Source of the DNA: a virus
Taxonomy: Duplodnaviria > Heunggongvirae > Uroviricota > Caudoviricetes
Strand: one strand, 5' to 3'
Virus record (IMG/VR): IMGVR_UViG_3300031998_000001
Location: 109,064 to 173,063 of that record
Length of the DNA stretch: 64,000 nucleotides
Shown here piece after piece: positions 1,270 through 47,894 of the stretch. Below the pieces are notes generated by a model. The model had not been told where the DNA came from. It worked only from the letters and a program-made list of their open reading frames with translations, and searched no databases. Position 1 is the stretch's first letter; every line of letters starts with the position of its first letter. Position numbers and translations under genes: made by a program.

Positions 1270-2679
1270 ATGAGCGATACATTTAGCAAATCAAGTGAGA
1301 TGAGTGCGGAATATTGCTGCACTATTGTAAAGATAGGGGCGTTGAAGCCGATAGAGGGTTCGGATTTCCTCGCAACTACGGAGATAAACGGGCGCACGAT
1401 AGTAGTGCGCAAAGACCAAGTGAACGAGGGCGATGTTATGTTCTATGCGTCCAACGAGTCCCAGATTGACGCGGAGTTCCTCCGTGCCAACTCATTGTTC
1501 GAGGACAGGACTATGAACGCAGACCAAGAGCACAAGGGCTACTTCAACAAGTACGGGCGTGTCCGTATGGTCAAGTTGCGCGGAGTGCTTTCGATGGGGT
1601 ACATATTCTCCCTTGAGGAACTCGAAAGGTACGACCACATCGACATTACCCAGAGTGAACTCGAACACTTTGTCGGGGTGGACTTCGACGAGGTGAACGG
1701 CAAGTTGTTCATCAAGGCTTTCGTACCGCCTATGGCGTGCAACGGACACGGGAGCAGGGGTGCTGGCGGAAAGCCGATTAAGAGGGTGAACAGGCTTATT
1801 GCTGGCGAGTTGAGGTTTCATTATGACACGAACCAGTTGGAGCGCAACCCAGAGAAGTTGCAACCGTTCGATAGTGTGGCTATTTCGGTAAAAATGCACG
1901 GAACTTCGGGAATCTTTGCTAACATACCAGTCAAAGTTCCGTTGTTCGGAGGGTGGTATGCACGCAAGTTCAACCGACTCCCGAAGTGGCTTCGCTTTAT
2001 GAAGAAGGGCTATGACACGATATATTCTTCGAGGAAGATTATCCAGAACCCGTTTGTTGACTATGACACCGAGTTCAAGGTCAAGTCGGAGTATGACGAG
2101 TGGTACTCGATACTCAACGGGTGCATACCCCGCAACATTACAATCTACGGCGAGATAGTCGGCTACAAGCCGAGCGGGAAGGCTATACAGAAGAACTTCG
2201 ACTACGGTTGCAGGCAGGGAGAATCTGCCCTTATGATATACAGGGTGAAGTACCGCGACAAGCATACATCGCGCGAGTTCAGCGTGAACGAGGTCGTTGA
2301 CTTTACCCTTGACCTCCGCGACAGGCTCGAAGCGACGAAGAGTGCGGAGGTCGCATCAAGGCTCATTGCCTTGCCAGTGCTTTTCCACGGCTCGCTCGCG
2401 GACTTCTATCCCGACATACCGAAGGACGGGAACTGGGGGGCGAATGTCCTCGAAAGGCTCAAGACGGAAAAGAAGTTCGGTATGGAGCAGAACGAGCCTC
2501 TGTGCAGGAACAAAGTTCCGCGCGAGGGCATAGTCGTCCGCATAGACGGGGACTGCATTGCCGAAGCCTTCAAGTTGAAATGCCTGAAGTTCTTGGGCAA
2601 GGAGGCGGAGATGATTGACAAGGGTGAGATAGATGATGACGAGATGCTCTCCCGCTACGGCGATGGCGGTGAAATCTGA
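1270..2679 (+). CDS. ATP-dependent RNA ligase, Rnl2/Rnl5-like nucleotidyltransferase
   Basis: Covalent nucleotidyltransferase motifs are all present and in order. Motif I is KMHGTSG (compare T4 Rnl2 KIHGTN). Motif III is IYGEIVG. Motif IV is EGIVVR. Motif V is FKLKCLK. About 200 aa of N-terminal extension precede motif I. Confidence 0.7.
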   Translation: MSDTFSKSSEMSAEYCCTIVKIGALKPIEGSDFLATTEINGRTIVVRKDQVNEGDVMFYASNESQIDAEFLRANSLFEDRTMNADQEHKGYFNKYGRVRMVKLRGVLSMGYIFSLEELERYDHIDITQSELEHFVGVDFDEVNGKLFIKAFVPPMACNGHGSRGAGGKPIKRVNRLIAGELRFHYDTNQLERNPEKLQPFDSVAISVKMHGTSGIFANIPVKVPLFGGWYARKFNRLPKWLRFMKKGYDTIYSSRKIIQNPFVDYDTEFKVKSEYDEWYSILNGCIPRNITIYGEIVGYKPSGKAIQKNFDYGCRQGESALMIYRVKYRDKHTSREFSVNEVVDFTLDLRDRLEATKSAEVASRLIALPVLFHGSLADFYPDIPKDGNWGANVLERLKTEKKFGMEQNEPLCRNKVPREGIVVRIDGDCIAEAFKLKCLKFLGKEAEMIDKGEIDDDEMLSRYGDGGEI

Positions 2680-5126: not shown

Positions 5127-7508
5127 ATGGGAGAGAAAGAACAGGCTAACACGACCGTCTGGTCGTCGAAGTCGGTGGCGAAATATACCGATGACATAGA
5201 CTCTGGCGTTGAGCGCAAGGGAGAGTCCCCGTTCTTTATGGGCAACAAGAAGTATCGCAAGGCAAATCTATTGTTTGAATATACGCAGGAGGAGGTTGCC
5301 GAACTGCTCAAGTGCAAGAATGATGTCCGTTACTTCGCCAACCACTATGCGTGGGTCAAGAACGCTGCCGAGGGTGGTGCCGTCGCGCAGATAACATTGA
5401 GGGACTATCAGGAGGATGTCCTCAATGTCATTGATGAAAACAGGTTCTCAATTATTCTCGCAAGTAGGCAGTCGGGGAAATGCTCGATACATTCGACTAT
5501 AATTGATACGGAGAACGGCGAGAAACGGGCGATTGGCGAATTGTTCGATGACGGTGATACATTCCTGTCAAGGGTTAAACGCTTCTTATATAAGTTGCAC
5601 GGCATACGCTTCATCAAAAATATCACAGGGCATTTGATACAGTTCATTGAACACATCGAGAACAGGGGCAAGGCGGTTTATGACGGCAAGTTCATTGATG
5701 AGCAGGACATATCGCTTATGGTGAAAAGTGATACGGGGTTCGTGCCCGCCACGAAGGTATATAAGACAAAGCCGTACAATGTGTACGAGGTCTTTTTTAC
5801 GGACGGCACTAAAATAGAGTGTGCGGACACCCATATATTCTTTACAGGTGAACTTGCGGAGGTATTCTGCAAGGACTTGAAGTCAGGCGACCGCTTGTTC
5901 GGGGACGGGTGCATAAAGACCGTAAAGAGTGTCAGACGACATAACTACAAGTTCTGTATGTACGATGTGTCAGTTGACGATGACACGCACAGGTACTATA
6001 CCAACGGGGTGCTGTCCCATAACACTATCAGTTCTTCGATATACTTGGCTTGGTATCTCCTGTTCAACTATGACAAGAATGTCTTTCTTACCGCGAACAA
6101 GGAGCGCACCGCCCGCGATGTGCTGTCGAAAGTTCAGGAGATAATAGAGAATGTGCCGTTCTTTATGAAACCGGGCATATTGAAGTGGGGTGCGCTCGAC
6201 CTGAAGTTCGACAACGGTTGCAAGTGCATTGCCGAATCGACAACGCCCCGCTCTGGTATCGGCTTCACAATCAACCTGCTCTACTTGGACGAGTTCGCCC
6301 ACGTCGAGAAAGGCATCATAGACGAGTTCTACTCCAACATTATGCCTACCGTAACATCACTCCCAGACAGCAAGATTATCATCACTTCGACACCGAACGG
6401 AATGAACCTGTTTTATGAAATCTACTCGGCTGCGGAGAAGGGGCTTAACGGCTTCAAGCCGTACAGGATAGACTGGTGGCAAGTTCCCGACTGGGACAAG
6501 AACCAGCGCAAGTGGGTGAAGCGAGACGAGGAGTGGATGGAAAGGACGATAGCGATACTCGGAGGCGAGGACAGGGAACTCGGTCTTGAACGCTTCGGTG
6601 CGCAGTACGGCAACTCGTTCTTGGCTACGGGCAACCTGCTCATATCCCCGAACGGCTTGAAGCGTATGGAGGAGAGCAAGGTGCAGTTCGTTCAGGACGA
6701 GAGCGACATATTCGACAGGTACGAGATAGAGGAGGCGAAGTACCTGCGGTGGCATCCAGATATTGATGTGCCGTCGCTGAAAACCAACACGAAGGACTTT
6801 TTCCTCATAAGCGTTGACCTCTCGGAAGGCAACGGGGGCGACTTCCTCGTGTCGGACATTTTCCGCGCTGGGGTTATGTCCCGCGAGGATGTTGAGGCAT
6901 TGCACACCCCGAACAAGATTTCCGACTATGTGTGCTTGGAGCAGGTCGGGGTATGGGCGCACAACTATATGTCCCTGAAGAACTTTGCGAAGTTCCTCTA
7001 TGTGCTGACGCACAAGTTGATGAACCCAGAGAATTTGAAGATAATCCTCGAATGGAACGCATTTGGCGGGGAGGTTATGTCGGAACTCGGATATGTGTTC
7101 GGGGACAGGAACGACTTCTCGAAGGATGTCATACTCAAATTCAAGCACAGCATAGACAGCGACATATACAAGTACGGCTTGAAGGTCAATGCCGAGAACA
7201 AGAAGATACACTGCCAGATGATGCGCACCAACACGGCTTGCGGGCGTATGATAGTCCACGACATACCGACCATAAAGGAGTTCAACCTGTTCGGGCTACG
7301 GAAGAACAGTTATGCCGCCATAACGGGGCACGACGACTTGGCGATGACCTGCGTGAACGCAAACGCCTTCTTCGAGACGAGGGCTTTCGGGTGGATTTCC
7401 GACAATGTGATTGCGGAGAGCGGGCGTATGCAGGAACTGCTCGATGCGATGAAGGTCAACGGTGACCCCGATGTCGAGTACGGGAGCATATATTCGGCGG
7501 CATTCTGA
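5127..7508 (+). CDS. terL: terminase large subunit, intein-containing
   Basis: Walker A ASRQSGK|T is interrupted by an intein. Walker B-like LLYLDEFAHV is present. The C-terminal nuclease-like half is present. The size fits once the intein is removed. Confidence 0.85.
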   Translation: MGEKEQANTTVWSSKSVAKYTDDIDSGVERKGESPFFMGNKKYRKANLLFEYTQEEVAELLKCKNDVRYFANHYAWVKNAAEGGAVAQITLRDYQEDVLNVIDENRFSIILASRQSGKCSIHSTIIDTENGEKRAIGELFDDGDTFLSRVKRFLYKLHGIRFIKNITGHLIQFIEHIENRGKAVYDGKFIDEQDISLMVKSDTGFVPATKVYKTKPYNVYEVFFTDGTKIECADTHIFFTGELAEVFCKDLKSGDRLFGDGCIKTVKSVRRHNYKFCMYDVSVDDDTHRYYTNGVLSHNTISSSIYLAWYLLFNYDKNVFLTANKERTARDVLSKVQEIIENVPFFMKPGILKWGALDLKFDNGCKCIAESTTPRSGIGFTINLLYLDEFAHVEKGIIDEFYSNIMPTVTSLPDSKIIITSTPNGMNLFYEIYSAAEKGLNGFKPYRIDWWQVPDWDKNQRKWVKRDEEWMERTIAILGGEDRELGLERFGAQYGNSFLATGNLLISPNGLKRMEESKVQFVQDESDIFDRYEIEEAKYLRWHPDIDVPSLKTNTKDFFLISVDLSEGNGGDFLVSDIFRAGVMSREDVEALHTPNKISDYVCLEQVGVWAHNYMSLKNFAKFLYVLTHKLMNPENLKIILEWNAFGGEVMSELGYVFGDRNDFSKDVILKFKHSIDSDIYKYGLKVNAENKKIHCQMMRTNTACGRMIVHDIPTIKEFNLFGLRKNSYAAITGHDDLAMTCVNANAFFETRAFGWISDNVIAESGRMQELLDAMKVNGDPDVEYGSIYSAAF
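5481..6023 (+). other. mini-intein (181 aa, Hint domain, no homing-endonuclease domain) inside terL P-loop
   Basis: Starts with Cys immediately after the Walker A lysine (CSIHSTIIDT, block A). Block B is ECADTHIFFT. Blocks F/G are MYDVSVDDDTHRYYTNGVLSHN followed by the extein Thr. Confidence 0.8.
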
Positions 7509-7702: not shown

Positions 7703-7740
7703 TCCCGCCATAATGACGGGCTTTGCTTTTTCATATTTTT
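7703..7740 (+). terminator. weak terminator candidate
   Basis: Short stem CCCG...CGGG followed by a T-rich run (CTTTGCTTTTTCATATTTTT). Confidence 0.3.
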
Positions 7741-7796: not shown

Positions 7797-8207
7797 ATGG
7801 ATAACAACAGCAACAGCAGAGAGAGATTTGGGGTGGCACTTGTAAAGTACGCCTGCCCGATTTGCGGAAAGGTCAACGAGGACGCAACCGCAGTAGCAGT
7901 GAACAGAAGGTTGACGAAGCCCTGCGCGGACAAGGTTCGTGAACTCAACGGACAATGCGTGGGCTTTTCGGAGAAGCCCTGCAAGGAGTGCCAGTCCTAT
8001 ATAGACAAGGGCGCATTCTTCATCATAGGCGTTGACGGGGAGAAGTCAACCGATATGCGCAACCCGTACCGTTCGGGACACCTTGTGGGCATAAGCAAGA
8101 AGTCCGACTTCTATGCCAGCCTGCCAGAAGAATACAAGAGGAAGCCAGCGGTGTTTATGGACTACCGCGAGATGATGGCTTTGAAAATGATAGCCGAAAA
8201 CAAGTAA
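7797..8207 (+). CDS. hypothetical Cys-rich protein (CPICG...CKEC)
   Basis: ORF directly after the cassette. Zinc-ribbon-like Cys pairs. Confidence 0.55.
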   Translation: MDNNSNSRERFGVALVKYACPICGKVNEDATAVAVNRRLTKPCADKVRELNGQCVGFSEKPCKECQSYIDKGAFFIIGVDGEKSTDMRNPYRSGHLVGISKKSDFYASLPEEYKRKPAVFMDYREMMALKMIAENK

Positions 8208-11508: not shown

Positions 11509-11970
11509 ATGGGAAGGAAGTACACGAACTTATTGCAGGAAACACTGGAGGCGGCTGGCTACAAGAGCGTCACCGAGTTCGCCCGAAAGATAATGTTCGC
11601 CCGCGTGGGTATTGACACGACAGTACCGCAGGAAAGGGCATACCTGAAGGAGAATGCGGTTGACGAGTACGGGCATACGAGGTTGTTCCTCACGCTTCCG
11701 CCATATCATATGGAGGAGGATGCCCACCTGTTCGCCAATATGCTTGATGTCCTCTACTACAACGGATTCGGGACGCAGGAAGTGTTCGGGGAGATTGCAC
11801 TTGCGGACGGGCAGTGGCTCTCCCGCAAGGAGTATGACGGAAGCGAGGAGTGGGAGTTGTGCTATTATCCGTCTTGGAACGATATGTGCAACGCCAACTG
11901 GAACGACGAGTTCAGGGACTGCAAGTTAAAAATAAATGAAAGCGATGAAAGCGAAGAAGAACATAGTTGA
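11509..11970 (+). CDS. hypothetical protein
   Basis: ATG MGRKYTNLL after an RBS-like GGGGGAATAG. In-frame with track ORF 11449. Confidence 0.5.
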   Translation: MGRKYTNLLQETLEAAGYKSVTEFARKIMFARVGIDTTVPQERAYLKENAVDEYGHTRLFLTLPPYHMEEDAHLFANMLDVLYYNGFGTQEVFGEIALADGQWLSRKEYDGSEEWELCYYPSWNDMCNANWNDEFRDCKLKINESDESEEEHS

Positions 11971-12472
11971 GAGGGGCAAGGAGTTGTCCTTCCTGTTGAG
12001 GCACGACAAGGAATATGCCTTTGACGAGCACGGCTGGCGCGAGGTCGCCGACCTGATTGAAAGGCACGGTTACACGATGGATGAACTCGAAGAGATAGTT
12101 GCGACCAACGACAAGAAGCGGTACGAGTTCTCGGATGACAGAAAGCGCATACGCGCCCGTCAGGGGCATAGCGTCGATGTCGATGTGGAATTGAAGGAGT
12201 GCGTACCGCCCGATACATTGTATCACGGGACTGCCGCAAGGTTCGTTGACCAGATACTCCGCGAGGGCATTACGAAGCAGTCGAGGCTTTATGTGCATTT
12301 GTCTGCGGATGTTTCGACAGCGTTCAAGGTCGGAAAGCGTCACGGGACACCATCGGTGCTTGCGGTGGATGCTATGGAAATGGTGGCGGACGGGCATAAG
12401 TTCTATTTGAGCAACAACGGTGTCTGGCTCACGGAGTATGTGCCGACCAGATACCTCAATGTCGTGATGTGA
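11936..12472 (+). CDS. RNA 2'-phosphotransferase Tpt1/KptA family
   Basis: Family motifs present: LSFLLRH (Arg-His), IRARQGHS, LYHGT, LYVHLS, VGKRHG, NNGVWLTEYVP. Confidence 0.75.
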   Translation: MKAMKAKKNIVERGKELSFLLRHDKEYAFDEHGWREVADLIERHGYTMDELEEIVATNDKKRYEFSDDRKRIRARQGHSVDVDVELKECVPPDTLYHGTAARFVDQILREGITKQSRLYVHLSADVSTAFKVGKRHGTPSVLAVDAMEMVADGHKFYLSNNGVWLTEYVPTRYLNVVM

Positions 12473-19889: not shown

Positions 19890-20306
19890 ATGGAGGCGAA
19901 GGGCGAAGTCAACAGCATAATACCGACGCTTATGGTCGGGGACATTGTTTCCGTGCCAGAGCAAGGCGTAGTGAGAGTGGATGAGATTGCAATGGACGAA
20001 AACAGGCAATGGTACATTTCATTCGCCTGCTCCGCCACACTGTTCCGTTCGTACAATCCAAGCGAAATACCTGTAACCCCGCAGTTGCTTGACCTGAACT
20101 TTGTTCGGGGCTGGGGCAGGGAGACTTGGGTGCTTCCGGAAGGTGCGATACTGAAGCGGATGGAACACGCAAACGGCAATACGGACTACCTGTACGAAGG
20201 CACTCCGATATTCCTCTGCGCGGTGGACGAACTCCAGCACCTGCTCCGTATGTTTGGTCAGGACGGAATAGAGAAGGCTAACAATATTAAACTTTCGGAA
20301 AAATAA
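19890..20306 (+). CDS. hypothetical protein
   Basis: ATG MEAKGEVNS, in-frame with track ORF 19803. Confidence 0.5.
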   Translation: MEAKGEVNSIIPTLMVGDIVSVPEQGVVRVDEIAMDENRQWYISFACSATLFRSYNPSEIPVTPQLLDLNFVRGWGRETWVLPEGAILKRMEHANGNTDYLYEGTPIFLCAVDELQHLLRMFGQDGIEKANNIKLSEK

Positions 20307-20315
20307 CATTAGGCT

Positions 20316-20696
20316 ATGGAAGAAAAAGTAAACACAAAGGAAGCGTTCTGGTGGGACGGGAAGAAGTTCGAGCAGTTCGACGATTTGTTCCGCCGTTGCA
20401 CCGACCTTGCGAAGAAAAGGCGCACGGAAAAGAAGGCTGTCGAGATGTTCAACGGCTACGCCAAGTACATAGGCGAGGTCAACGGCTTGTCGGATGAAAA
20501 GGCTATGGAGTGCGCGAAGCACAACTTCGGCTACCACGCTGGTCGGTACGACAGGGAGACGGAGGATGCGGTCAATAGGGTGCTCGGTGCTTTCCACCCG
20601 TACTTCGGGGGGAGGAACTCCCACGATGTAACGCCAGAGGAGGCGATGAACGCTGGAATGAGGTATTTCACGGAATTGCATAACGAAAACAAATAG
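20316..20696 (+). CDS. hypothetical protein
   Basis: Packed ORF. Confidence 0.5.
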   Translation: MEEKVNTKEAFWWDGKKFEQFDDLFRRCTDLAKKRRTEKKAVEMFNGYAKYIGEVNGLSDEKAMECAKHNFGYHAGRYDRETEDAVNRVLGAFHPYFGGRNSHDVTPEEAMNAGMRYFTELHNENK

Positions 20697-20701
20697 GAAC
20701 T

Positions 20702-21502
20702 ATGAAGGACGCATTAGGCGACAGGATGAAAAGGTACGAGGCGAACGCGGACATAAGGCTTGTCCGCAGGACACCCGTGATAATAAGGATTGACGGCAAG
20801 GCTTTCCACACATTCACAAAGAAGTTCGACAAGCCGTTCGACCAAGTTTTTATGAAGGCTATGTTCGGGACGGCTCTGACATTGTGCGAGAACATACAGG
20901 GCTGTCGGCTCGGCTATACCCAGAGCGACGAGATTTCGCTCCTGCTGACCGACTACGAGAAACTGAACACAGACCCGTGGTTCGACAACCGCATACAGAA
21001 GATGTGCTCGATAGCCGCCTCGATAGCGACGCTCGCATTCAATCGGGCTTTCGAGCGTGCGGTAAGGGAGATTTCGGGGGAATATCCAGCCGAAAAGGTT
21101 GCGACATACAAGAGGAGCATTGCAATGGGCGGGATTTTCGATGCACGCGCATACAATGTCCCGAAGGACGATGTTACCAACTACTTCCTGTGGAGGCAGA
21201 ACGATGCCACCCGCAACTCGATACTTGGGGTAGGTCAGAGCGAGTTTACGCGCAAGAGGCTGATGAACAAGTCGTGCGACGAGATACAGGAGATGCTCTT
21301 TTTGGAGAAGGGCATAAACTGGAACGACTACGACACACCTCTCAAGAGGGGCGTGTGCATAAGGAAGGTCGGCAAGGAGGTCAACGGCACAGTGAGGAAC
21401 TTCTGGGAGATAGACTACGATATTCCGATATTCAGGGGCGAAGGTCGGGAGTATGTCGAGCAACTTGTGTTTCCAAACATTGACGAAAATGGAAGGGAAT
21501 AA
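20702..21502 (+). CDS. Thg1-like protein (tRNA-His guanylyltransferase family; 3'-5' nucleotide addition enzyme)
   Basis: MKRYEAN...RTPVIIRIDGKAFHTFTKKFDKPFDQ...GYTQSDEISLLL. This matches the Thg1/TLP core VVRIDGRAFHKF..KP.D...AYGQSDEISF. Confidence 0.7.
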   Translation: MKDALGDRMKRYEANADIRLVRRTPVIIRIDGKAFHTFTKKFDKPFDQVFMKAMFGTALTLCENIQGCRLGYTQSDEISLLLTDYEKLNTDPWFDNRIQKMCSIAASIATLAFNRAFERAVREISGEYPAEKVATYKRSIAMGGIFDARAYNVPKDDVTNYFLWRQNDATRNSILGVGQSEFTRKRLMNKSCDEIQEMLFLEKGINWNDYDTPLKRGVCIRKVGKEVNGTVRNFWEIDYDIPIFRGEGREYVEQLVFPNIDENGRE

Positions 21503-21710
21503 CTACTTGGACGAAAAGAGGAAGTTGTCGAAGGACACATACCGATGCGAGTGGAAACCCGCCTGTCGGGAGTGTGCCTTCTTCAACCACTCGATACTGA
21601 TATGCAGGCTGAACGAAATGCCCGTCAGGGCTGACATCGGTATCTGCGACGCATTCGAGCAGAATACCCGTATGGACGGTATTCCGTTTTCGGACGGGCG
21701 AAGTTTGTGA
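21489..21710 (+). CDS. hypothetical small Cys-rich protein
   Basis: ATG MEGNNYLDEKRK; four CxxC-like cysteines. Confidence 0.35.
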   Translation: MEGNNYLDEKRKLSKDTYRCEWKPACRECAFFNHSILICRLNEMPVRADIGICDAFEQNTRMDGIPFSDGRSL

Positions 21711-21742
21711 TTTTTCTGAAATTATAATAAATAGCCTATATA
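21710..21742 (+). promoter_or_regulatory. conserved promoter cassette, short copy d
   Basis: TTTTTCTGAAATTATAATAAATAGCCTATATATTGGTC. Confidence 0.45.
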
Positions 21743-22399
21743 TTGGTCTTGATGAAGAAGTCGGAGGACAGGATAATGTTTCGGAGCGGTGACAGGTACG
21801 GGATAGCGGACGGCTATGACATTGACGGAAGGTACATATACCCGAAGTCGGCGCAGGTTACAATGGACACCAACGGCAATACGGGCGTGTACTTCACCGA
21901 CAAGTTGTGGACACCGCCGAGCGCAACGGCAGTCCTTTCGGATGATGAGTATGTTGCTTTGAATCGGGAGTTTATGAAGTTGAGGAAACTTACGGATATA
22001 CAGCGAAGCACGCTTGACGCTATGGTAACTGCGAAACTGCGCAGGTCGGAGTCGAAGGAAGGTGACGGCATCGTGTTCGGCAGGAAGGTGCTTGTCCGCG
22101 ACATAGGCGGGGACAGGAACACACGTTACGGGATAGCGGAAAGTTGCACGGTGTCGGAGAACGGACGCACACTCAATCCGAAGTCACCGAAGACAGTGAT
22201 GGAAAGTCTCGGTATTACGGGCACATTCTTCGACAGCAGGTACTGGATTGTGCCAGAAACAATGTTTGTTCTTACGGATAGTGAATACGATATGCTTGAA
22301 GCAGGCTTCACGGAGATAAGGGAGATTATGGGCGCACAGCGCAATGCGCTTGTCGCGCTCGGAGAATTAAAGTTAAGGGGTGAAACGAATGAAAACTAA
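21743..22399 (+). CDS. hypothetical protein with twofold internal duplication
   Basis: DRYGIADGYDIDG...YFTDKLW...LSDDEY...L is repeated later as TRYGIAESCTVSENG...FFDSRYW...LTDSEYDML. Confidence 0.55.
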   Translation: MVLMKKSEDRIMFRSGDRYGIADGYDIDGRYIYPKSAQVTMDTNGNTGVYFTDKLWTPPSATAVLSDDEYVALNREFMKLRKLTDIQRSTLDAMVTAKLRRSESKEGDGIVFGRKVLVRDIGGDRNTRYGIAESCTVSENGRTLNPKSPKTVMESLGITGTFFDSRYWIVPETMFVLTDSEYDMLEAGFTEIREIMGAQRNALVALGELKLRGETNEN

Positions 22400-23291
22400 A
22401 ACGAACAATAACGGACTGAAGATGGTCATATTGCAGGGTGTTCCCGCAAGTGGCAAGACGACTTGGGCGAAGGAGTTCACCAAGAAGAAAAAGAACTGGG
22501 TGATTGTTTCCCGCGATGCCCTCGAAGAAGCGTCTGGCGGTTGCAAGGGCGTAAACCAGAACGGCTATGTGAACCAACTCGTGAAGTTCTCGATTATGAG
22601 TGCTTTCGAGAGGGGGCTTAATGTCGTGGTTGACGGTATGAACCTTGCCACAGACGAGGTGCAGGTGCTTCAGGACATCGCAAGGGACTACGGCGCGGAG
22701 GCGGAGCGCAGGGAGTTCCGCATAAGCCTGCCCGATGCGCTCGAACGGAACGCCAAGCGCACGGACAAGCACATATCGCCCGACAAAATAAAGGAGTTGT
22801 ATCGGGAGTACATCCCAGAGGAGTACAGGTATTACAACACCGACCACCGCAGGATAATGAATGCCAACCCAGACCTCCCGCCAGCCGTGATATGCGACAT
22901 AGACGGGACTGTGGCGTTGAGGAACGGGCGTTATGTGTTCGACAACCAGAAGGCGATAGAGGATACTTTCGACCCGCGTATGAAAAGACTGCTCTCGTTG
23001 CTCGAAAAGTCGGGCGTTGAAATCATATTCCTTTCTGGTCGGGAGGGGACGGATGAGTGCAGGGATGTAACGGAACGCTGGCTTGCGCTTCACGGCTTCG
23101 GGCATTGCAAACTCCTTATGCGCCCGAAGGGTGACAGCAGAGGCGACGAGGATGTCAAGTACAGCCTGTGGCATACGCTCGTAGCACCCAACTATGATGT
23201 GGTTGCGGTGTTCGACGACAGGGACTGCGTGGTGAAGATGTGGAGAAGTCTTGGGCTTCTGTGCAATCAGGTCTATTACGGAAACTTTTAG
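22389..23291 (+). CDS. pnk: polynucleotide 5'-kinase / 3'-phosphatase (T4 Pnk-like, Pnkp)
   Basis: N-terminal P-loop VILQGVPASGKTTW. C-terminal HAD-type phosphatase DIDGT (DxDxT) with SGREG and FDDRD. The track start 22380 is GTG; ATGs are at 22389 and 22422. Confidence 0.75.
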   Translation: MKTKTNNNGLKMVILQGVPASGKTTWAKEFTKKKKNWVIVSRDALEEASGGCKGVNQNGYVNQLVKFSIMSAFERGLNVVVDGMNLATDEVQVLQDIARDYGAEAERREFRISLPDALERNAKRTDKHISPDKIKELYREYIPEEYRYYNTDHRRIMNANPDLPPAVICDIDGTVALRNGRYVFDNQKAIEDTFDPRMKRLLSLLEKSGVEIIFLSGREGTDECRDVTERWLALHGFGHCKLLMRPKGDSRGDEDVKYSLWHTLVAPNYDVVAVFDDRDCVVKMWRSLGLLCNQVYYGNF

Positions 23292-23302
23292 CATTGATAA
23301 AT

Positions 23303-23587
23303 ATGAATGATAATAACAGCATCGCAAGGAAGATTGTGAAGGACGGCGCGAAGAAAAGGTGCTGTCCCGAACTCTCGGACGGTGATATGTTCGACGGGGC
23401 GTTGAGGATGGCGCAGTGGAAGGACAGGAGAGCCAAGACGGTGATAATGGACATCGTGTCGAACATACTCATAGACACCGAATATACGGAGGGCAAGGTT
23501 GATGCCTGCTCCGAAATCTACGAGAGGCTGTTCGGGGAGAAACTCATAATAAGGGGCGGCGCAATGGACAATAGCAAGGAGGAATAG
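23303..23587 (+). CDS. hypothetical protein
   Basis: ATG MNDNNSIARK, in-frame with track ORF 23240. Confidence 0.45.
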   Translation: MNDNNSIARKIVKDGAKKRCCPELSDGDMFDGALRMAQWKDRRAKTVIMDIVSNILIDTEYTEGKVDACSEIYERLFGEKLIIRGGAMDNSKEE

Positions 23588-23589
23588 TT

Positions 23590-24036
23590 ATGGCAAGGGA
23601 ATTATCGGCGGGAATAATAATAAAGTGCAAGAGTGGCTACCTTATGTGCCACCCGACAGGAAGGAAGTACGAGCGCGGGAACTACGACATACCGAAAGGT
23701 CACGTGGAGGGCGATGACAATACATACCTCGATGCCTGCCTGCGCGAACTCGAAGAGGAGACTGGCATAGTGCTCTCGGAGAACGATGCAAGGCAAATCA
23801 GGACGATAGGTCGCACGGACTACAACCCGAAGAAAGACCTCTACCTGTTCTACCTGTGGCTTCCGTACGACATAGACACGAGGAAACTCACCTGCAAGTC
23901 TATGTTCACCGCGAAGGACGGGCGGGAAGTCCCAGAGATGAACGGGTATATGCTCTCTATGGACATTGGCTGGCTCTATCCGAATATGAAGAAGGTGTTT
24001 GACCGGCTGCTCGACATTGACGGCAACCTGATTTAG
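23590..24036 (+). CDS. Nudix hydrolase
   Basis: Nudix box GHVEGDDNTYLDACLRELEEETGI (Gx5Ex7REUxEExGU). Confidence 0.75.
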   Translation: MARELSAGIIIKCKSGYLMCHPTGRKYERGNYDIPKGHVEGDDNTYLDACLRELEEETGIVLSENDARQIRTIGRTDYNPKKDLYLFYLWLPYDIDTRKLTCKSMFTAKDGREVPEMNGYMLSMDIGWLYPNMKKVFDRLLDIDGNLI

Positions 24037-24046
24037 AAAATCCGAT

Positions 24047-24112
24047 ATTTTCTGAAATCGCTATATATTTCCAATATATTAGTGATGGAAAGAAATAAAA
24101 GAATATAAGGAT
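24047..24112 (+). promoter_or_regulatory. conserved promoter/5'-UTR cassette, copy e (variant)
   Basis: TTTTCTGAAATCGCTATATATTTCCAATATATTAGTGATGGAAAGAAATAAAAG. Confidence 0.5.
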
Positions 24113-24703
24113 ATGGATAAGAAGAAAAGACAAAGCAAGTGCAAGTTCAGTGTTGATTATGAAATCTTGTACACCCCCGAAACCAACAACTACAACATCG
24201 TGAACCCATTGCTGGTGTTGCACAAGGCAAACGATTCGAGTTGCTACTTCATAAGTTTCGACACTTTAGAGAAGTGGGGCTTCCCGCGTGAAAGGGCAGA
24301 GAAATACGACAAGTTGCCGTTCACTTTTGTATGTGATGGCATTATAGTTTGCGCTCTTACCTTTGTCAAGTGCGTGGACGGCTTCAAGTACATACCGCAG
24401 GGCGACTACAAGAAGGGCTTGGCGAAGGCGCACATAACTTTGGAAAACTGCGACAAGTGGTGCAACAAGGACTGGAAGTTGTACGCGCTTGATGTCGAAC
24501 TTGACACGGAGGTCAAGAACCCGCTTGTCGGCAAGACATCGATTGCCTGTTACAGCAGTGGCAACGGAATCTGGCATACGGCAAAGACCGCGAACCGCCC
24601 GAACACCGCCCAACTGACGCTTGTGAACAGGCACTTCCTCTCGATGGACTGCAAGCAGCCTATGGCTGGCGGAAAGCGCATTAAAGATGTAATTGTATTA
24701 TAA
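24113..24703 (+). CDS. hypothetical protein
   Basis: ORF after the cassette. Confidence 0.55.
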   Translation: MDKKKRQSKCKFSVDYEILYTPETNNYNIVNPLLVLHKANDSSCYFISFDTLEKWGFPRERAEKYDKLPFTFVCDGIIVCALTFVKCVDGFKYIPQGDYKKGLAKAHITLENCDKWCNKDWKLYALDVELDTEVKNPLVGKTSIACYSSGNGIWHTAKTANRPNTAQLTLVNRHFLSMDCKQPMAGGKRIKDVIVL

Positions 24704-24718
24704 GCAAAAGCAACTGAA

Positions 24719-26050
24719 ATGAAAACAACTGAAAACAGCAAGAGTATCGATGCCACAGGCAACGAACTTGCAAGGAAATACAATCTGACGCTCAACCCGA
24801 CCACAGGTCTGTACGACTGCGACGGGGATGTTAAGGTCGGAAAGGATTTGGTTAAGGACGGAAGACTGGTCATTAGGTTCGGAACGGTTGATGGGGGATT
24901 TGATTGTAGCAAGAACAAACTGACATCTCTTGAAGGTTGCCCGCAGAAGGTTGATGGATTTTTTGATTGTAGTGTCAACAACCTGACTTCACTTGAAGGT
25001 GCGCCACAGAAGGTCGGCAAGGATTTCTATTGCGACCATAACTACTTGACATCACTCAAGGGTTGTCCGCAGGAGGTCGGCTGCGATTTCTACTGCGAGC
25101 AGAACATCCTGTCTTCACTTGAAGGCGCACCCCAGCGCATCGGCGGGTGGTTCTATTGCGCTAATAATCAACTGACATCTCTTGAAGGCGCACCACGGAA
25201 GGTTGGCGGGCAATTCTATTGCTGGGAAAACAAACTATCTTCCCTTGAAGGAGCACCGCAGAGCGTCGGTGGGGATTTCGATTGTAGCAACAATAACCTG
25301 ACCACCCTCGAAGGAGCACCGCAGGAAGTCGGCAGGAGTTTCGAGTGTAGCGGAAACAGCCTGACATCGCTTGAAGGCGCACCGCAGGAAGTCAGTGGAA
25401 GTTTTGATTGCAGTCATAACAACCTAACATCGCTCAAGGGAGCACCACGGAAGGTTGATAGTAATTTTAATTGCAGTAACAACAAGTTGACTTCCCTCGA
25501 AGGCGCACCAAAGGAAATCATCGGCTGGTTCGATTGCAGTTTTAACAACCTCCCCTCACTCGAAGGCGCACCGCAGGAAGTTGGTGAAGATTTTTATTGC
25601 GTCGGGAACAACCTCGCCACCCTCGAAGGAGCACCAAAGGAAGTCGGCGGGGATTTTTATTGCCAAGGAGATGTATTGGACGGCAAGGGCACGGCTACGG
25701 CTGGAAGCGATAAGGACGACAATGTGGCGTGTAATGCACCCAGCACTACGAAAACGAAAATCAATGTCATAGTCCGCACGGACGAAGGCTTCACGGTGGA
25801 AACCCACCACCCGCTTGTCGAGGCAAGACTCGCAAAGGAGTTCTGCGACAAGGTGGCGAAGGAAGGCGGGGAGCACAATGTCAATACCGTTTCCACGGAT
25901 GCGACGGATGTGTATTACACATACGCCACCGAAGTATTGGGCATTGAAGTCCACATTTATCTTGACGGGAAGGAAGTTACGATGCCTGAACTTTTTACAG
26001 ATTACAACAAGTCGATAGACTATTGCGCTGAAATTCTGGGGAGGGAATAA
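24719..26050 (+). CDS. tandem-repeat protein: about 14 copies of a 20-residue FxCSxNxLTSLEGAPQxVGG unit, plus a unique C-terminal domain
   Basis: Perfect 20-aa periodicity from residue 56 to about 315. LRR-like Leu/Asn spacing. Confidence 0.65.
   Translation: MKTTENSKSIDATGNELARKYNLTLNPTTGLYDCDGDVKVGKDLVKDGRLVIRFGTVDGGFDCSKNKLTSLEGCPQKVDGFFDCSVNNLTSLEGAPQKVGKDFYCDHNYLTSLKGCPQEVGCDFYCEQNILSSLEGAPQRIGGWFYCANNQLTSLEGAPRKVGGQFYCWENKLSSLEGAPQSVGGDFDCSNNNLTTLEGAPQEVGRSFECSGNSLTSLEGAPQEVSGSFDCSHNNLTSLKGAPRKVDSNFNCSNNKLTSLEGAPKEIIGWFDCSFNNLPSLEGAPQEVGEDFYCVGNNLATLEGAPKEVGGDFYCQGDVLDGKGTATAGSDKDDNVACNAPSTTKTKINVIVRTDEGFTVETHHPLVEARLAKEFCDKVAKEGGEHNVNTVSTDATDVYYTYATEVLGIEVHIYLDGKEVTMPELFTDYNKSIDYCAEILGRE
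24884..25663 (+). repeat. 60-nt-period coding tandem repeat array
   Basis: Repeated ...TTGATTGTAGCAACAACAACCTGAC..CTCGAAGGAGCACCGCAGGAAGTCGG... units. Confidence 0.7.
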
Positions 26051-31598: not shown

Positions 31599-32435
31599 AT
31601 GGAAAAAAGAACAAAAGTAATCGTAGGCGTAATAATCGCCGCATTGTTTATGTTAGTTATGTGCTTTGTAACCCGCTGCTCGAAGGTCGATACGGCGGAG
31701 GTCGGCATCAAGTTCAACAAGTTGAGCCTCACCGAGCAGGGGACGCTCGACGCGACAATAGTTTCGGGCTACACTTGGTACTGCCCGATAACGACAGACC
31801 TGCACACATACCCGACATTCGTGCAGAGAAAGAACTACCCGCCGTTTACCGTAAATACGAAGGATGCTGCCGAGTTCACTATGGACCCGAACATCGCATA
31901 CCAGATTAACCGAGACCGAGCGATAGACATATTCCAGAAATACCGCAAGGCACTTGAGGAGATAGAGGACGGGTATATGCTCACGGTCATAAAGGATGCG
32001 TACAGGATAACGGCAAACAGATATACATCCGACAGCATAATGGGAAACCGAGCAAGATTCGAGAGCGAGGTGCGGACAATGCTTGACACGGCACTCTCCA
32101 ACGAAGGCTTTATGGTGACGGAATTTACCTCCCAGATTACACCGCCAGCGTCCCTGCGTGCAATGATAGACTCGAAGAATGCAGCGATACAGTCGGCACT
32201 CAAAGCCGAAAATCAGGTGAAGGAGGCGGAAGCCAACGCCAAGATAGCCGTTGCAAAGGCGCAGGGGGAAGCGGAAGCCCTGAAGATAAAGGCTGACGGT
32301 GAGGCTTACTACAACCGAACCGTTGCTGCCTCGTTGAACCAGATACTCGTCCAGCAGTATGCGATAGAGAAGTGGAACGGCGTGATGCCACAGGTCACTG
32401 GCACTGGCTCTATGCCAATGATTGACCTCAAATAG
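31599..32435 (+). CDS. SPFH/band-7 (HflK/C- or prohibitin-like) membrane protein
   Basis: N-terminal TM helix VIVGVIIAALFMLVMCFV. SPFH-like core. C-terminal AENQVKEAEANAKIAVAKAQGEAEALKIKADGEA helix typical of HflK/C. Confidence 0.6.
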   Translation: MEKRTKVIVGVIIAALFMLVMCFVTRCSKVDTAEVGIKFNKLSLTEQGTLDATIVSGYTWYCPITTDLHTYPTFVQRKNYPPFTVNTKDAAEFTMDPNIAYQINRDRAIDIFQKYRKALEEIEDGYMLTVIKDAYRITANRYTSDSIMGNRARFESEVRTMLDTALSNEGFMVTEFTSQITPPASLRAMIDSKNAAIQSALKAENQVKEAEANAKIAVAKAQGEAEALKIKADGEAYYNRTVAASLNQILVQQYAIEKWNGVMPQVTGTGSMPMIDLK

Positions 32436-35120: not shown

Positions 35121-35999
35121 ATGGTGCATATCAAGAGAACGAACGAGATGGCTGGTTTCCAGCCAAGACACATAAAGGTTGATGACTTTTTTGACATCAG
35201 TTCAATATCCCGCAAGGACATCACATCAATATCGACGGACTTGCGCGTGTTTTTTCAAGTCAAATTATTTGACTCGAATATTGATTACTCCGACGGCGAG
35301 CATATCAACGAAAGCGTCGAAAGGACACTAACCATAAGCGAAATCAAAAGAGAGTTGAGGAAACTCAAGTTCAAGAGGTGGCAGATTTCATCAGAAATGG
35401 GTCAAAACGGAAACAGGATAGCCATCCTGTATGCGGACATAGCGATGAACACCGACATAATCAGCCAGAAGATGGAATCGTTCGGGTGGGAATGTGCGGA
35501 TATTTCCGATGCGATGGAAATATACGGCGTTATGTGCCGAGTTATGACATTCGACCCGTCGTATCCGCAGGAAATATCGGACTATGTGTTCGGATGCAGA
35601 TATATTTATCATTGGACACCGAAGGCAAGGGTTGCATCTATTCTTTCGGACGGCATAGAACCACGTAGCGAAAATGAATACTTGAAGTTCAAGCCCAAGG
35701 TGCATCTGATGAAAGAGAATGTCACGAAACGAGTTGCTTCAAATCTCGGATGGCAGTTATACAATAGGAAATCGGAATCGAATGAGGGTGAATACTGCCT
35801 GTTGAGAATAGCCGTGAACAAGATACCCAGCAATGTCAAGTTTTATGGAGATACGAGATGCGGTTGCGGAATTACCACGAAATGTACGATACCGCCCGAA
35901 GCGATAACGATATTCGGGAAGATAGAATACAGGGACAAGCAGAAATATCACAACGAGAAGATTATAGTGCTCGTGGATGACGATACAATGAACCAATAG
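35121..35999 (+). CDS. protein with divergent Tpt1/ADP-ribosyltransferase-fold C-terminal domain
   Basis: The C-terminal 100 aa align motif by motif with the window's Tpt1 gene (11936). IYHWTPKARVASILSDGI matches LYHGTAARFVDQILREGI. KVHLM matches YVHLS. KFYGD...ITT..IPPEAI matches KFYLSNNGVWLTEYVPTRYL. Confidence 0.4.
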   Translation: MVHIKRTNEMAGFQPRHIKVDDFFDISSISRKDITSISTDLRVFFQVKLFDSNIDYSDGEHINESVERTLTISEIKRELRKLKFKRWQISSEMGQNGNRIAILYADIAMNTDIISQKMESFGWECADISDAMEIYGVMCRVMTFDPSYPQEISDYVFGCRYIYHWTPKARVASILSDGIEPRSENEYLKFKPKVHLMKENVTKRVASNLGWQLYNRKSESNEGEYCLLRIAVNKIPSNVKFYGDTRCGCGITTKCTIPPEAITIFGKIEYRDKQKYHNEKIIVLVDDDTMNQ

Positions 36000-36468: not shown

Positions 36469-37320
36469 ATGCTGAAAGATATGGAAGGAAAGGAGTATAA
36501 AAACAGAGGCGTGGGTGTCGTAACGCTTGTTATGACATTCATAGGAGGCAAGGCTCACATACTTGCCAACCAGAGGGGCGACAAGACTTCCGAGCAGGGC
36601 TTGCTGTGGAACTTGCCGAGCGGATACCTCGACTGGAATGAAACTGCGGAGATGGCTGCGGCGAGGGAAATCAGGGAGGAGTGCGGTGTCGAAATTGCAC
36701 CGAGCGAACTCACGGAACTGGAACACTCGACAGACCCGGCGGAGAACAGGCAGAACATAATGTTCCGATACATTGCGGTCGTGGAAGCCGAACGCCTCCG
36801 CGACTTCAAGGCTATGGACGCGGACGAAGTTAGGGACATAAGGCTCATACCGCTTTCCGACATAGAGCAGTACAGGTGGGCTTGGGGGCAGAACCGCAAG
36901 ATATACCGCCTGATAAACAAGTACAACGAGTATGCGGAGAAGAAGGTTATGACATTCGGCAGGTTCAAGGGCTGTGTAATCGACGAAGCGTTTACAAGCC
37001 AGAATTGGGCATATCTCGAATGGGCTTATAAGAATGTCGGGGAAGTCGTAAAGTGGTTCAAGAACGGCTTGAAAAAGCCCCGTACGGCATATACGCCAAA
37101 GCCCGCTCCAAGCATCAGCCGATATTATGGCTCTGGACACGGCTACGGTGATGACGACGATGATGAGAACAGGCGTTGCGGGAACTGCCCGCACGGTGGC
37201 TACGACTCCTGTTCGGACTACTGCGATGCCTGTCGGCACGACCCAGACACGGGCTGGGGCGGGGAGACCGACCATAGCCTGTGCAGTGATAGCGAGGAGA
37301 CGGGCTGGGGTGGGGATTAG
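36469..37320 (+). CDS. Nudix hydrolase fused to DUF3820-like segment and Cys-rich acidic tail
   Basis: Nudix box GYLDWNETAEMAAAREIREECGV. Middle segment is FGRFKGCVIDE...YLEWAYKN. The tail is CGNCPHGGYDSCSDYCDACRHD plus two GWGG motifs. Confidence 0.65.
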   Translation: MLKDMEGKEYKNRGVGVVTLVMTFIGGKAHILANQRGDKTSEQGLLWNLPSGYLDWNETAEMAAAREIREECGVEIAPSELTELEHSTDPAENRQNIMFRYIAVVEAERLRDFKAMDADEVRDIRLIPLSDIEQYRWAWGQNRKIYRLINKYNEYAEKKVMTFGRFKGCVIDEAFTSQNWAYLEWAYKNVGEVVKWFKNGLKKPRTAYTPKPAPSISRYYGSGHGYGDDDDDENRRCGNCPHGGYDSCSDYCDACRHDPDTGWGGETDHSLCSDSEETGWGGD

Positions 37321-41852: not shown

Positions 41853-42284
41853 ATGGACACACATATCAAGAAAGTAAATGAAATGGAGCAGTCGGAGTTC
41901 ATTGACGACTGCGAGATACGCGAGAAGGTGTGCCAGATGGCGGGGATAGACGACATCGGCGAGTTCTCGGACGGCTTCCATACATTCAATTCGCTCTATC
42001 GGCAGAGGTGCGTGCTTTTCGCCGCGCTCGTGAACTCGTACCCGCAGATAAGTTGGAAGTCGAAACGGCACGATGACGGCGAACTGTGCTTCGGCGGGGG
42101 CTGGTTCATAGTGGGCATAGACACGCCCGAAGGCTCGTACACATACCACTACGAGTTGAAGGACTGGGATATGTTCAGGTGCAAGGAACTTGAAAGGGGC
42201 AAGAAGTGGGACGGACACACGGATGCCGATGTGGAACGCCTGCTCTCGCTCGATGCGTATAACAAATATGCGAAGGTATGGTAA
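41853..42284 (+). CDS. hypothetical protein
   Basis: ORF. Confidence 0.5.
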   Translation: MDTHIKKVNEMEQSEFIDDCEIREKVCQMAGIDDIGEFSDGFHTFNSLYRQRCVLFAALVNSYPQISWKSKRHDDGELCFGGGWFIVGIDTPEGSYTYHYELKDWDMFRCKELERGKKWDGHTDADVERLLSLDAYNKYAKVW

Positions 42285-46533: not shown

Positions 46534-47733
46534 ATGTATATCGCACCGTCGGATGTATTCATATTCGAGAACTACGGGGACGACCTGTTGAGGCTCACCC
46601 CCGAAACAAAGGGCGCACTCCTCCGCTGTGACAGGCGTTTCCACAAGTTGATGGAGGAGTATGAGAGGGAACACGTGCATTTCGCAAATGTGAAGAATGT
46701 CCGTTCCGAGATAGACAAGTACCTTGAAGCGAGGAAGAAGGGCAAGAGCCACAGGTTGAGGCTCGAATACGAGGACAGCAAGTTCTCGGACGACAAGTGG
46801 TGCGACGGGATGATTGGGAAACTCGGAGAACTCAAGAACGATTTGATAACCGTTGACTGCTACCTCACGAAGTTCTACATATACAGGATTGACCGAACGA
46901 TAGACAGCATAATGTTCCTCAACGAATACTCGCACGATGAAAACGCCTTCCCGAAGAACATAAAGCGTCCTTCGGAGAAACTCTACCGCAAGGCACTCGA
47001 ATACCTCGTGAAGTACAAGTACCAGAGCGTACAGGAACTCGCGGACAAGGACGAGGACTACAGGAGGGTGTTCACCCCAGAGGAGAGCAGGAAGCGTTTA
47101 CAGAAAATCATCGACAAACTCGGCTACGGCTGGAAGGTCATCATAGACGACAATATGGTTCCGAGAATGAGCGTGAGACCGTATCGGGAGTTCAGGATAA
47201 ATGCGAAAAACAACTTCAGCGAGGTTGACCTCCGCTCCCTCGAAGTCCACGAGATAGAAGTCCACACGGCTCGCAAGGCGAATGCGTTGAAAACAGGGCT
47301 GTACCTGTTCCTATACGGGCTTGAGGGGGACAACATATATGACGAGGGGCTTGCAATCTACAACTCCCTCAACAAGGCGGAGAAGCCGAAGCCGAACATA
47401 ATCTTCTTCATAGCGATAAAGATTGCCATACTCTACAACCTCTACATTATGGACACGGACGCTCTGTACGAGATGCTACTCGGCTTGACCGAAGCACCAG
47501 AGGAGGTCGTGGTGTACGCAATCATAAGGGCGATGAGGGTGTTCTCGTTCACGACGACCGAGACGGCATACACGGACACCGACTACCTTGACGGGTACGA
47601 GAGGGTTAAGGAGATGGACTCGGCACTCAAGAAAGACCTCCTGCTCTACACGATAGGACCCGACCAGTTGTATGAACTCCCGATAATAAAGAAGTTTATG
47701 CAGGTAAACAAGTTCAAGCCTCTGGAGGTGTAG
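46534..47733 (+). CDS. DUF1704/QEGLA-motif (MATCAP-like) putative metallo-carboxypeptidase
   Basis: HEIEVH (HExxxH spacing), then DEGLA about 30 residues later. Size about 400 aa is typical of the family. Confidence 0.4.
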   Translation: MYIAPSDVFIFENYGDDLLRLTPETKGALLRCDRRFHKLMEEYEREHVHFANVKNVRSEIDKYLEARKKGKSHRLRLEYEDSKFSDDKWCDGMIGKLGELKNDLITVDCYLTKFYIYRIDRTIDSIMFLNEYSHDENAFPKNIKRPSEKLYRKALEYLVKYKYQSVQELADKDEDYRRVFTPEESRKRLQKIIDKLGYGWKVIIDDNMVPRMSVRPYREFRINAKNNFSEVDLRSLEVHEIEVHTARKANALKTGLYLFLYGLEGDNIYDEGLAIYNSLNKAEKPKPNIIFFIAIKIAILYNLYIMDTDALYEMLLGLTEAPEEVVVYAIIRAMRVFSFTTTETAYTDTDYLDGYERVKEMDSALKKDLLLYTIGPDQLYELPIIKKFMQVNKFKPLEV

Positions 47734-47818: not shown

Positions 47819-47894
47819 TTTTCTGCTACTCGCAGAATTTACACCTGCATTATTATAGTCCCTACCTTTGCGATGTAACCAAAGGCAACGGACT

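Follow-up and report, generated by a model that had tools for sequence, protein, structure and literature searches.

Do the genes for a Thg1-like 3'-5' polymerase, a polynucleotide kinase/phosphatase (Pnkp) and a Nudix hydrolase, which follow one another at positions 20,702 to 24,036 of a 64,000-nucleotide stretch of a Caudoviricetes genome (IMG/VR record IMGVR_UViG_3300031998_000001, positions 109,064 to 173,063; hereafter the window), act together in the repair of RNA ends? A preliminary description, made from the letters of the window, had read them as one repair module and had linked to it an RNA ligase, two Tpt1-like proteins and a second Nudix hydrolase encoded elsewhere in the window. 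We consider it probable that this phage carries an RNA end-healing and end-sealing set of the kind inferred for large phages, with a functionally coupled Pnkp and Thg1-like protein (TLP) as its core. The phage itself, which is uncultured, belongs to the jumbo phages and has no close relative among those described. Its TLP sequence is found, identical, on 11 public contigs, the longest of which is a metagenome contig of 387,452 bp in ENA, other copies lying on JGI metagenome contigs; a 381-kb relative with about 84% protein identity keeps the gene order of the run.

The first gene (20702..21502, + strand) encodes a TLP of 266 amino acids (aa), of the bacterial type represented by the Bacillus thuringiensis protein (BtTLP). 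It matches Pfam PF04446 with an E-value of 1.3e-33 and 116.1 bits, against a cut-off of 29.2, and the PHROG family phrog_4717, annotated as tRNA-His guanylyltransferase, at 5.7e-91. The BtTLP structure 4KGK is matched at 3.2e-67 over residues 3-259, nearly the full length, and eukaryotic Thg1 structures in the range 1e-8 to 1e-12 (3WBZ, 5.7e-12; 3OTB, 9.5e-9). The protein is thus nearer to the bacterial repair-type BtTLP than to the eukaryotic, tRNA-His-specific Thg1, and the family assignment of the preliminary description holds. The conserved active-site carboxylates are D30/D75/E76 in BtTLP and D29/D76/E77 in the human enzyme (PMC3701042). Because the catalytic core aligns with that of BtTLP without gaps, D31, D76 and E77 of the phage protein correspond to these three residues; the preliminary description had tied its reading to their presence, and all three are there. 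The product is predicted to rebuild the 5' ends of RNA as a templated 3'-5' nucleotidyltransferase. To our knowledge, the biological role of bacterial-type TLPs is still unsettled, and our literature search found no paper in which a phage-encoded one had been tested.

The kinase gene, on the same strand at 22389..23291 (public gene call; an alternative start lies at 22380), encodes a 300-aa bifunctional polynucleotide 5'-kinase/3'-phosphatase of the T4 Pnkp/Pnkp1 type. The two activities that had been proposed from a P-loop and a DxDGT motif map to two domains of one polypeptide: AAA_33 (residues 15-132), with the P-loop GVPASGKT, and HAD_PNKP (residues 167-303, 7.2e-41), with the phosphatase motif DIDGT. 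Solved structures of Pnkp1 (4XRP, 1.6e-35) and T4 Pnkp (1LTQ, 2.6e-34) are matched end to end. The kinase residues K23/T24 of the P-loop, D43 and R120/R124 are present, as are the phosphatase residues D170xD172GT, the arginine R218 of an SGR motif and the distal pair D276/D277; one further kinase position is discussed below.

The strongest evidence for a functional pairing of these two proteins comes from other phages. We sampled 80 of 178 Thg1 loci in IMG/VR, with TLP homologues 46-59% identical, and 100 of 164 GenBank records. Clustering at 75% identity groups the 80 loci into 18 Thg1 lineages, and 20 representative loci were scanned for protein families less than 4 kb from Thg1. Within 10 kb of Thg1, a Pnkp homologue was present in 44 of the 80 loci and an Rnl5-like ligase in 21; the kinase may stand upstream or downstream of Thg1, and both the intervening genes and the gene order vary. 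In the family scan, AAA_33 ranked first (6 proteins), followed by the calcineurin-like phosphoesterases (Metallophos, 5) and RNA_ligase (4). Three proteins each were assigned to the PolyA_pol/CCA-adding head, NADAR, PHA02142 OB, NAPRTase, NAD synthase and HD families, and two each to HAD_PNKP and RlaP. A polynucleotide-kinase-like gene was found less than 4 kb from Thg1 in 4 of the 18 phage lineages. Thg1 is accompanied by a HAD-type kinase or by a kinase alone in loci L001, L038 and L048, and by a kinase fused to an HD rather than a HAD domain on three phage contigs that represent three Thg1 lineages (L058, 8309-9211; L077, 9105-9974; L061, 9054-9974), the fusion gene directly abutting Thg1 in L077 and L061. 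Since the same TLP-kinase partnership recurs with different phosphatase modules and in different gene orders, the proximity looks selected rather than the product of shared descent, and the pairing looks functional. In the phage under study, Pnkp would be expected by chance within three gene positions of Thg1 in about 1% of cases (our own estimate, for about 600 genes on 387 kb), and this adjacency carries some weight; the two genes are paired in phages unrelated to this one as well.

Two other products of the window also have homologues in the sampled loci. They are a 136-aa protein and a WDGH-domain protein, whose genes lie away from the run, at 7797-8207 and 41853-42284. In 36 loci (L001-L036, on IMG/VR contigs of about 100-270 kb), Thg1 is followed about 2.5 kb downstream by a homologue of the 136-aa protein, the one in L001 having a weak match to an Ada zinc-binding domain, and homologues of the WDGH-domain protein adjoin Pnkp in 18 loci.

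How far the three enzyme genes form a unit depends on what lies between them. They stand at the coordinates first given for them, all on the + strand, in a run whose intergenic distances range from -50 to 41 nucleotides (nt). Their common direction, on which the preliminary description had leaned, is uninformative because nearly all genes between 5 and 47 kb of the window are on that strand; in this it differs from the adjacency of Thg1 and Pnkp. Three open reading frames (ORFs), which that description had missed, sit among the enzyme genes, all on the + strand. A cysteine-rich ORF of 85 aa (21453..21710) overlaps the 3' end of the Thg1 gene by 50 nt; it figures among the gene calls of the public contigs and is kept in the relative at about 84% identity. 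An ORF of 94 aa (23303..23587), likewise among those gene calls, lies between Pnkp and Nudix. Between the 85-aa ORF and Pnkp, an ORF of 215 aa (21752..22399) encodes a protein of two duplicated units of about 100 aa each. Its homologues number seven, all close, among 5.8 billion clusters, with three matches among 1.84 billion representatives, and the protein is limited in range to this phage lineage. None of the 85-, 215- and 94-aa products had a family match in profile searches at the thresholds used. The AlphaFold model of the 215-aa protein (pLDDT 39) was unusable and was discarded. A motif of about 30 residues is common to this protein and a protein of 2228 aa, 13 matched stretches being reported in the latter.

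No + strand terminator was found in the run, and a promoter/terminator consensus scan of it was uninformative. A repeated intergenic element was spotted by eye and then traced by a pattern search of the window. It measures about 45-50 nt, follows the consensus TTTTCTGAAAT-N3-TATTTATT-N-ACTATATATTAGTGTTGGAAAGGAAA and occurs at positions 7738, 10360, 12476, 21712, 24048, 29644, 32517, 37326, 44265 and 56993. The 11-mer TTTTCTGAAAT has 10 exact copies in the window and 14 matches with at most one mismatch, against 1.5 expected. All exact copies of the element are on the + strand, just past a stop codon and 20-60 nt ahead of the next + strand gene. Two of them concern the run. The copy at 21712..21751 (TTTTCTGAAAT ... 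CTATATATT) lies between the 85-aa and 215-aa ORFs, directly upstream of the latter; it is atypical, and its 5' half is absent in the relative L087. The copy at 24048..24095, just after the Nudix gene, is canonical and is conserved at the same place in L087. Overall, the element is only in part conserved in a relative. It resembles a promoter specific to this phage, with a leader that is conserved, and would divide the region into transcription units. If it is a promoter, the 215-aa ORF, Pnkp, the 94-aa ORF and Nudix would form one unit, and Thg1 would be the penultimate gene of the preceding one, with read-through possible.

The third enzyme of the run (23590..24036, + strand) is a Nudix hydrolase, as had been proposed: it matches PF00293 at 1.8e-10 and its REx2EE core is intact, the Nudix box (G37...RELEEETG) having a spacer one residue longer than the canonical one. 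Comparisons with solved structures and NCBIfam models gave generic matches alone, and the subfamily was assigned by a search of the phage collection. There, tblastn found homologues in 1255 phage records, mainly T4-like, and the protein is a full-length homologue of the T4-type NudE (e.1), with 34% identity to nudE of Shigella phage SP18 over 148 aa, its whole length (E 1e-22). T4 NudE.1 acts on ADP-ribose, Ap3A, FAD and NAD, and in vitro it decaps NAD-RNA to 5'-monophosphate RNA and does not trim 5'-triphosphate RNA (bioRxiv 10.1101/2024.04.04.588121). The likeliest substrates of the phage enzyme are NAD, ADP-ribose or NAD-capped RNA, the last of which would be left as 5'-monophosphate RNA. 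It is therefore plausible that the enzyme has to do with the 5' ends of RNA and with the turnover of NAD and ADP-ribose, and we regard it as a neighbour concerned with these rather than as a fixed step of tRNA repair.

The other genes that had been assigned to the repertoire lie further away, all on the + strand. At 1270..2679, a 469-aa ATP-dependent RNA ligase of the DraRnl/NgrRnl, Rnl5-like kind is encoded. It carries an N-terminal OB domain (PHA02142 OB, 2.5e-9, residues 17-114) and an RNA_ligase domain (1.1e-5, residues 202-426), and it matches phrog_968 at 4.7e-44. Its motifs KMHG, IYGEIVG, EGIVV and KLK match motifs I, III, IV and V of the Deinococcus DraRnl, which read TEKLHG, VQIFGEVV, EGVVV and SVK (PMC1807946). 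The order of domains, OB followed by adenylyltransferase, with an end about 30 residues past KLK and no C-terminal domain, is that of Rnl5, which consists of an N-terminal OB module and an adenylyltransferase and has no C-terminal domain past motif V (PMC1807946). The curated cut-offs are not reached, either for TIGR02306 RNA_lig_DRB0094 (38.7 against 151 bits, 5.4e-10) or for PF09414 (26.0 against 27); the match to the N-terminal domain of NgrRnl is weak (E about 0.004), and the protein is longer than DraRnl by about 130 residues. For these reasons we call it Rnl5-like and not a member of Rnl5.

The gene at 11936..12472 encodes, as claimed, a Tpt1/KptA RNA 2'-phosphotransferase, of 178 aa (PF01885, 3.1e-43, 148 bits against a cut-off of 26; phrog_5470, 4.7e-62; NF002014, 1.3e-61). 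We take the catalytic tetrad of Tpt1 to be Arg-His-Arg-Arg, and R22-H23, the arginines R73/R75 of RARQGHS and R117 are present. The supposed second Tpt1-fold protein, of 292 aa (35121..35999), does have a C-terminal domain of the ADP-ribosyltransferase fold (Tpt1/DarT/pertussis-like), but it is without the N-terminal lobe of Tpt1 and does not belong to that family. The second Nudix hydrolase (36469..37320) proved genuine, with a canonical Nudix box, an ExoX-like_C stretch and a Cys/Asp-rich tail (PF00293, 6.8e-15; PF20600, 5.7e-5; phrog_1198, 3e-19). No 2H, CPDase-type, Macro, RlaP, CCA-adding or Hen1 methyltransferase protein was detected in the window.

Taken together, these enzymes suggest a pathway whose substrates, order of steps and role in counter-defence we infer. 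Where metal-independent host ribonucleases leave 5'-OH ends, the kinase domain of Pnkp would turn these into 5'-phosphates; the HAD domain of the same protein would strip off 2',3'-cyclic or 3'-phosphates. Next, the TLP would use ATP or GTP to activate the 5'-phosphate and would re-add missing 5' nucleotides in the 3'-5' direction, using the opposite strand of the tRNA stem as template, and the Rnl5-like ligase, which would seal nicks in duplex RNA, would close the healed breaks. The NudE.1-like Nudix hydrolase, Tpt1 and the ADP-ribosyltransferase-fold protein would supply the NAD/ADP-ribose side of the toolkit.

Several observations weigh against this pathway, or against its unity. We take the kinase residues of T4 Pnkp, as defined by mutagenesis, to be K15, S16, D35, R38 and R126, with Arg38 essential for the kinase. 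At the position of Arg38, the Pnkp of this phage and that of a close relative have a glutamate (Glu46 in the former), so that kinase activity on polynucleotides is not certain; more distant phage homologues in IMG/VR retain the arginine. The repair genes are dispersed over 36 kb rather than gathered in a single tight module, and a promoter-like element separates Thg1 from the Pnkp-Nudix group. The Nudix hydrolase had been counted into the Thg1 repair set, but it is not a recurrent neighbour of Thg1: tblastn found no homologue in the 80 IMG/VR loci, and NUDIX was not among the frequent families less than 4 kb from Thg1 in the 20 representative loci. In the isolates BcepSaruman, BSP38 and CBB, there is no annotated kinase near Thg1, nor an annotated ligase, most of the neighbours being unannotated hypothetical proteins. 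No host nuclease is known to us that defends against phages by truncating tRNAs at the 5' end. Finally, a T4-type Pnkp fully removes a 2',3'-cyclic phosphate, and the set would therefore produce no 2'-phosphate for Tpt1 to act on. To describe the genes as an RNA end-repair set is reasonable, and the repeated Thg1-Pnkp linkage supports this for these two; the Nudix hydrolase stands outside the recurrent part.

The same facts can be read in other ways. The TLP might serve the maturation of tRNA, adding G-1 to a phage or host tRNA-His (with C73 as template) or both trimming and rebuilding the 5' ends of phage tRNA transcripts, with Pnkp and Nudix as unrelated neighbours. Most phage homologues among the matches listed are annotated as tRNA-His guanylyltransferase, a review of jumbo phages mentions 5' restoration 'especially in the histidinyl tRNA' (PMC7824862), and BtTLP has been assayed for G-1 addition to tRNA-His (PMC3701042). 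Moreover, the Thg1 gene of mycobacteriophages adjoins a tRNA nucleotidyltransferase gene, and CCA-adding enzymes are frequent beside Thg1. But neither a tRNA gene nor any other Rfam family was found within the 64-kb window, the TLP is far nearer to BtTLP (3e-67) than to bona fide Thg1 (1e-8 to 1e-12), and the recurrent kinase and ligase neighbours suit the healing of broken ends better, so we give a role in maturation a minor, if appreciable, chance. It is unlikely, in our view, that there is no module at all and that independent auxiliary genes have come to lie close together as large phages stack accessory genes in same-strand arrays. The shared strand of nearly all genes at 5-47 kb, the three interleaved orphan ORFs, the distance of 8-20 kb to the ligase, Tpt1 and the second Nudix gene, the element between Thg1 and the Pnkp group and the three isolates just mentioned all fit such stacking, and synteny among relatives of about 84% identity is too recent to show selection. 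It accounts poorly for kinase-like genes less than 4 kb from Thg1 in 4 of 18 lineages, with varied orders and phosphatase domains, for the RNA ligases in several more, and for the Thg1-kinase association reported independently in bacteria (PMC2904730).

Two further readings depart from the favoured one. The more elaborate is a dedicated tRNA 5'-end pathway, in which Pnkp phosphorylates, the TLP extends and the ligase seals, directed against an undescribed host defence nuclease that truncates the 5' strand of the acceptor stem; the 85-, 215- and 94-aa products would be specificity or regulatory subunits, and Tpt1, the ADP-ribosyltransferase-fold protein and both Nudix hydrolases would strip ADP-ribose marks from RNA ends or recycle them. 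So complete a scheme we hold to be quite improbable. The other moves the substrates away from tRNA, to the 5' ends of mRNA or small RNA (through NAD-cap removal, re-phosphorylation and 5' extension) or to DNA ends. Pnkp enzymes accept DNA besides RNA, and Pnkp and Nudix lie in one unit bounded by promoter-like elements; T4 NudE.1, as noted, decaps NAD-RNA in vitro (bioRxiv 10.1101/2024.04.04.588121). Against this, all characterised Thg1/TLP substrates are tRNA-like stems (PMC3701042), and the CCA-adding enzymes and RlaP near Thg1 elsewhere point to tRNA, which makes non-tRNA substrates very improbable.

The set has several known counterparts. Polynucleotide kinase is the most persistent neighbour of bacterial Thg1, sometimes together with Macro and an RNA ligase, and a role in RNA repair was proposed on this basis, viral Thg1 being noted in phage 201phi2-1 and mimivirus (Anantharaman, Iyer and Aravind 2010, PMC2904730). 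The RNA repair repertoires of jumbo phages include RNA ligases, PNK-HAD, KptA, Nudix, RlaP, CCA-adding enzymes and, sporadically, Thg1 (Iyer et al. 2021, PMC7824862), and viral KptA and its fusion or coupling with Nudix have been discussed as well (Iyer et al. 2022, PMC9503650). Homologues of Thg1 occur in 164 deposited phage records and those of Tpt1 in 98, the Thg1-carrying jumbo phages including CBB, BcepSaruman, the Lak phages, 201phi2-1, Xoo-sp13, RsoM2USA and Caulobacter phages. As the concept and most of the pairings had already been published, the suggestion that this combination was undescribed for a phage fails, and the locus is a new example rather than a new kind of system. Its exact gene set, with Thg1 and Tpt1 in one genome, may be uncommon: among the matches listed for the 80 IMG/VR loci and 100 GenBank records, an incomplete comparison, no other phage was shown to have both. 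The whole genome of Bacillus phage C30-3 contains Tpt1 and no Thg1; Tpt1 is isolated in Erwinia phage Ea35-70 (40 kb examined), and eight IMG/VR contigs with Tpt1 have no other gene in common with the window and are not among the 80 Thg1 contigs.

The likeness to each of these systems is partial. The T4 system, in which Pnkp and Rnl1 counter PrrC, shares the two-domain architecture of Pnkp (1LTQ, 2.6e-34) and an ATP-dependent RNA ligase in the genome, whereas the ligase here is DraRnl/Rnl5-like with an OB domain instead of Rnl1, lies 20 kb from Pnkp, and the Pnkp has a glutamate at the R38 position. With the bacterial TLP operons (PMC2904730) and BtTLP (4KGK), the locus has in common a BtTLP-type TLP beside a P-loop kinase, and in both cases the kinase is predicted to supply the 5'-phosphate that the TLP would activate; unlike them, it is phage-encoded, its kinase is fused to a HAD domain, no Macro protein occurs in the window and orphan ORFs are interleaved. 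The jumbo-phage repertoires, read as counter-measures to attack on tRNA, likewise combine ATP-dependent RNA ligases, PNK-HAD, KptA, Nudix and sporadic Thg1 (PMC7824862, PMC9503650), but the ligases usual in those surveys are Rnl1/Rnl2 and RtcB, and KptA comes with 2H or Macro, in contrast to the Rnl5-like ligase of a window where 2H, Macro, RlaP and CCA-adding enzymes were not detected. The bacterial Pnkp1-Rnl-Hen1 repair complex provides the best solved-structure match of Pnkp (4XRP, 1.6e-35, full length), and the window has no detected Hen1 methyltransferase. T4 NudE.1 is homologous to the Nudix hydrolase over its full length (34% identity to a T4-type nudE, REx2EE conserved); the T4-type gene adjoins the lysozyme gene e and not pseT, and the Nudix-box spacer is one residue longer in the phage studied here.

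The surroundings of the run are those of a dense phage genome, with about 105 ORFs in the window and a strong purine skew. A megablast search of the deposited phage collection with window positions 20000-25000 gave no match. The large terminase (5127-7508) has a T4-like N-terminal domain and is interrupted, at about residues 187-257, by an intein splicing domain; its identity to the terminases of uncultured huge phages (460-640 kb) does not exceed 36%. Directly downstream of the run, a 443-aa protein (24719-26050) consists of many leucine-rich-type repeats of about 22 residues; an SPFH/Band-7 protein (31599-32435) and a match to a MATCAP-like metallopeptidase (46534-47733) follow. A match to the S-adenosylmethionine lyase family was also present in the window and was not placed on an ORF. 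At 47868-48827 lies an IS1595-family transposase (DDE_Tnp_IS1595, 4.9e-33, and a zinc ribbon), in a patch where the G+C content falls to 41-44% and the strand skew disappears; gene orientation is mixed at about 48.8-57 kb.

The question of what a phage TLP does is not newly opened by this locus, as cultivable phages of Bacillus, Caulobacter and Burkholderia carry the same enzyme and offer a better experimental entry. The locus contributes a further case, found in an uncultured phage of 387 kb, in which the TLP is combined, uncommonly, with Tpt1 and an Rnl5-like ligase. The recurrent placement of a TLP beside a kinase, with varied phosphatase modules, gives fair genomic support for 3'-5' polymerisation in phage RNA end repair, and it hints at host nucleases that damage the 5' ends of tRNAs.

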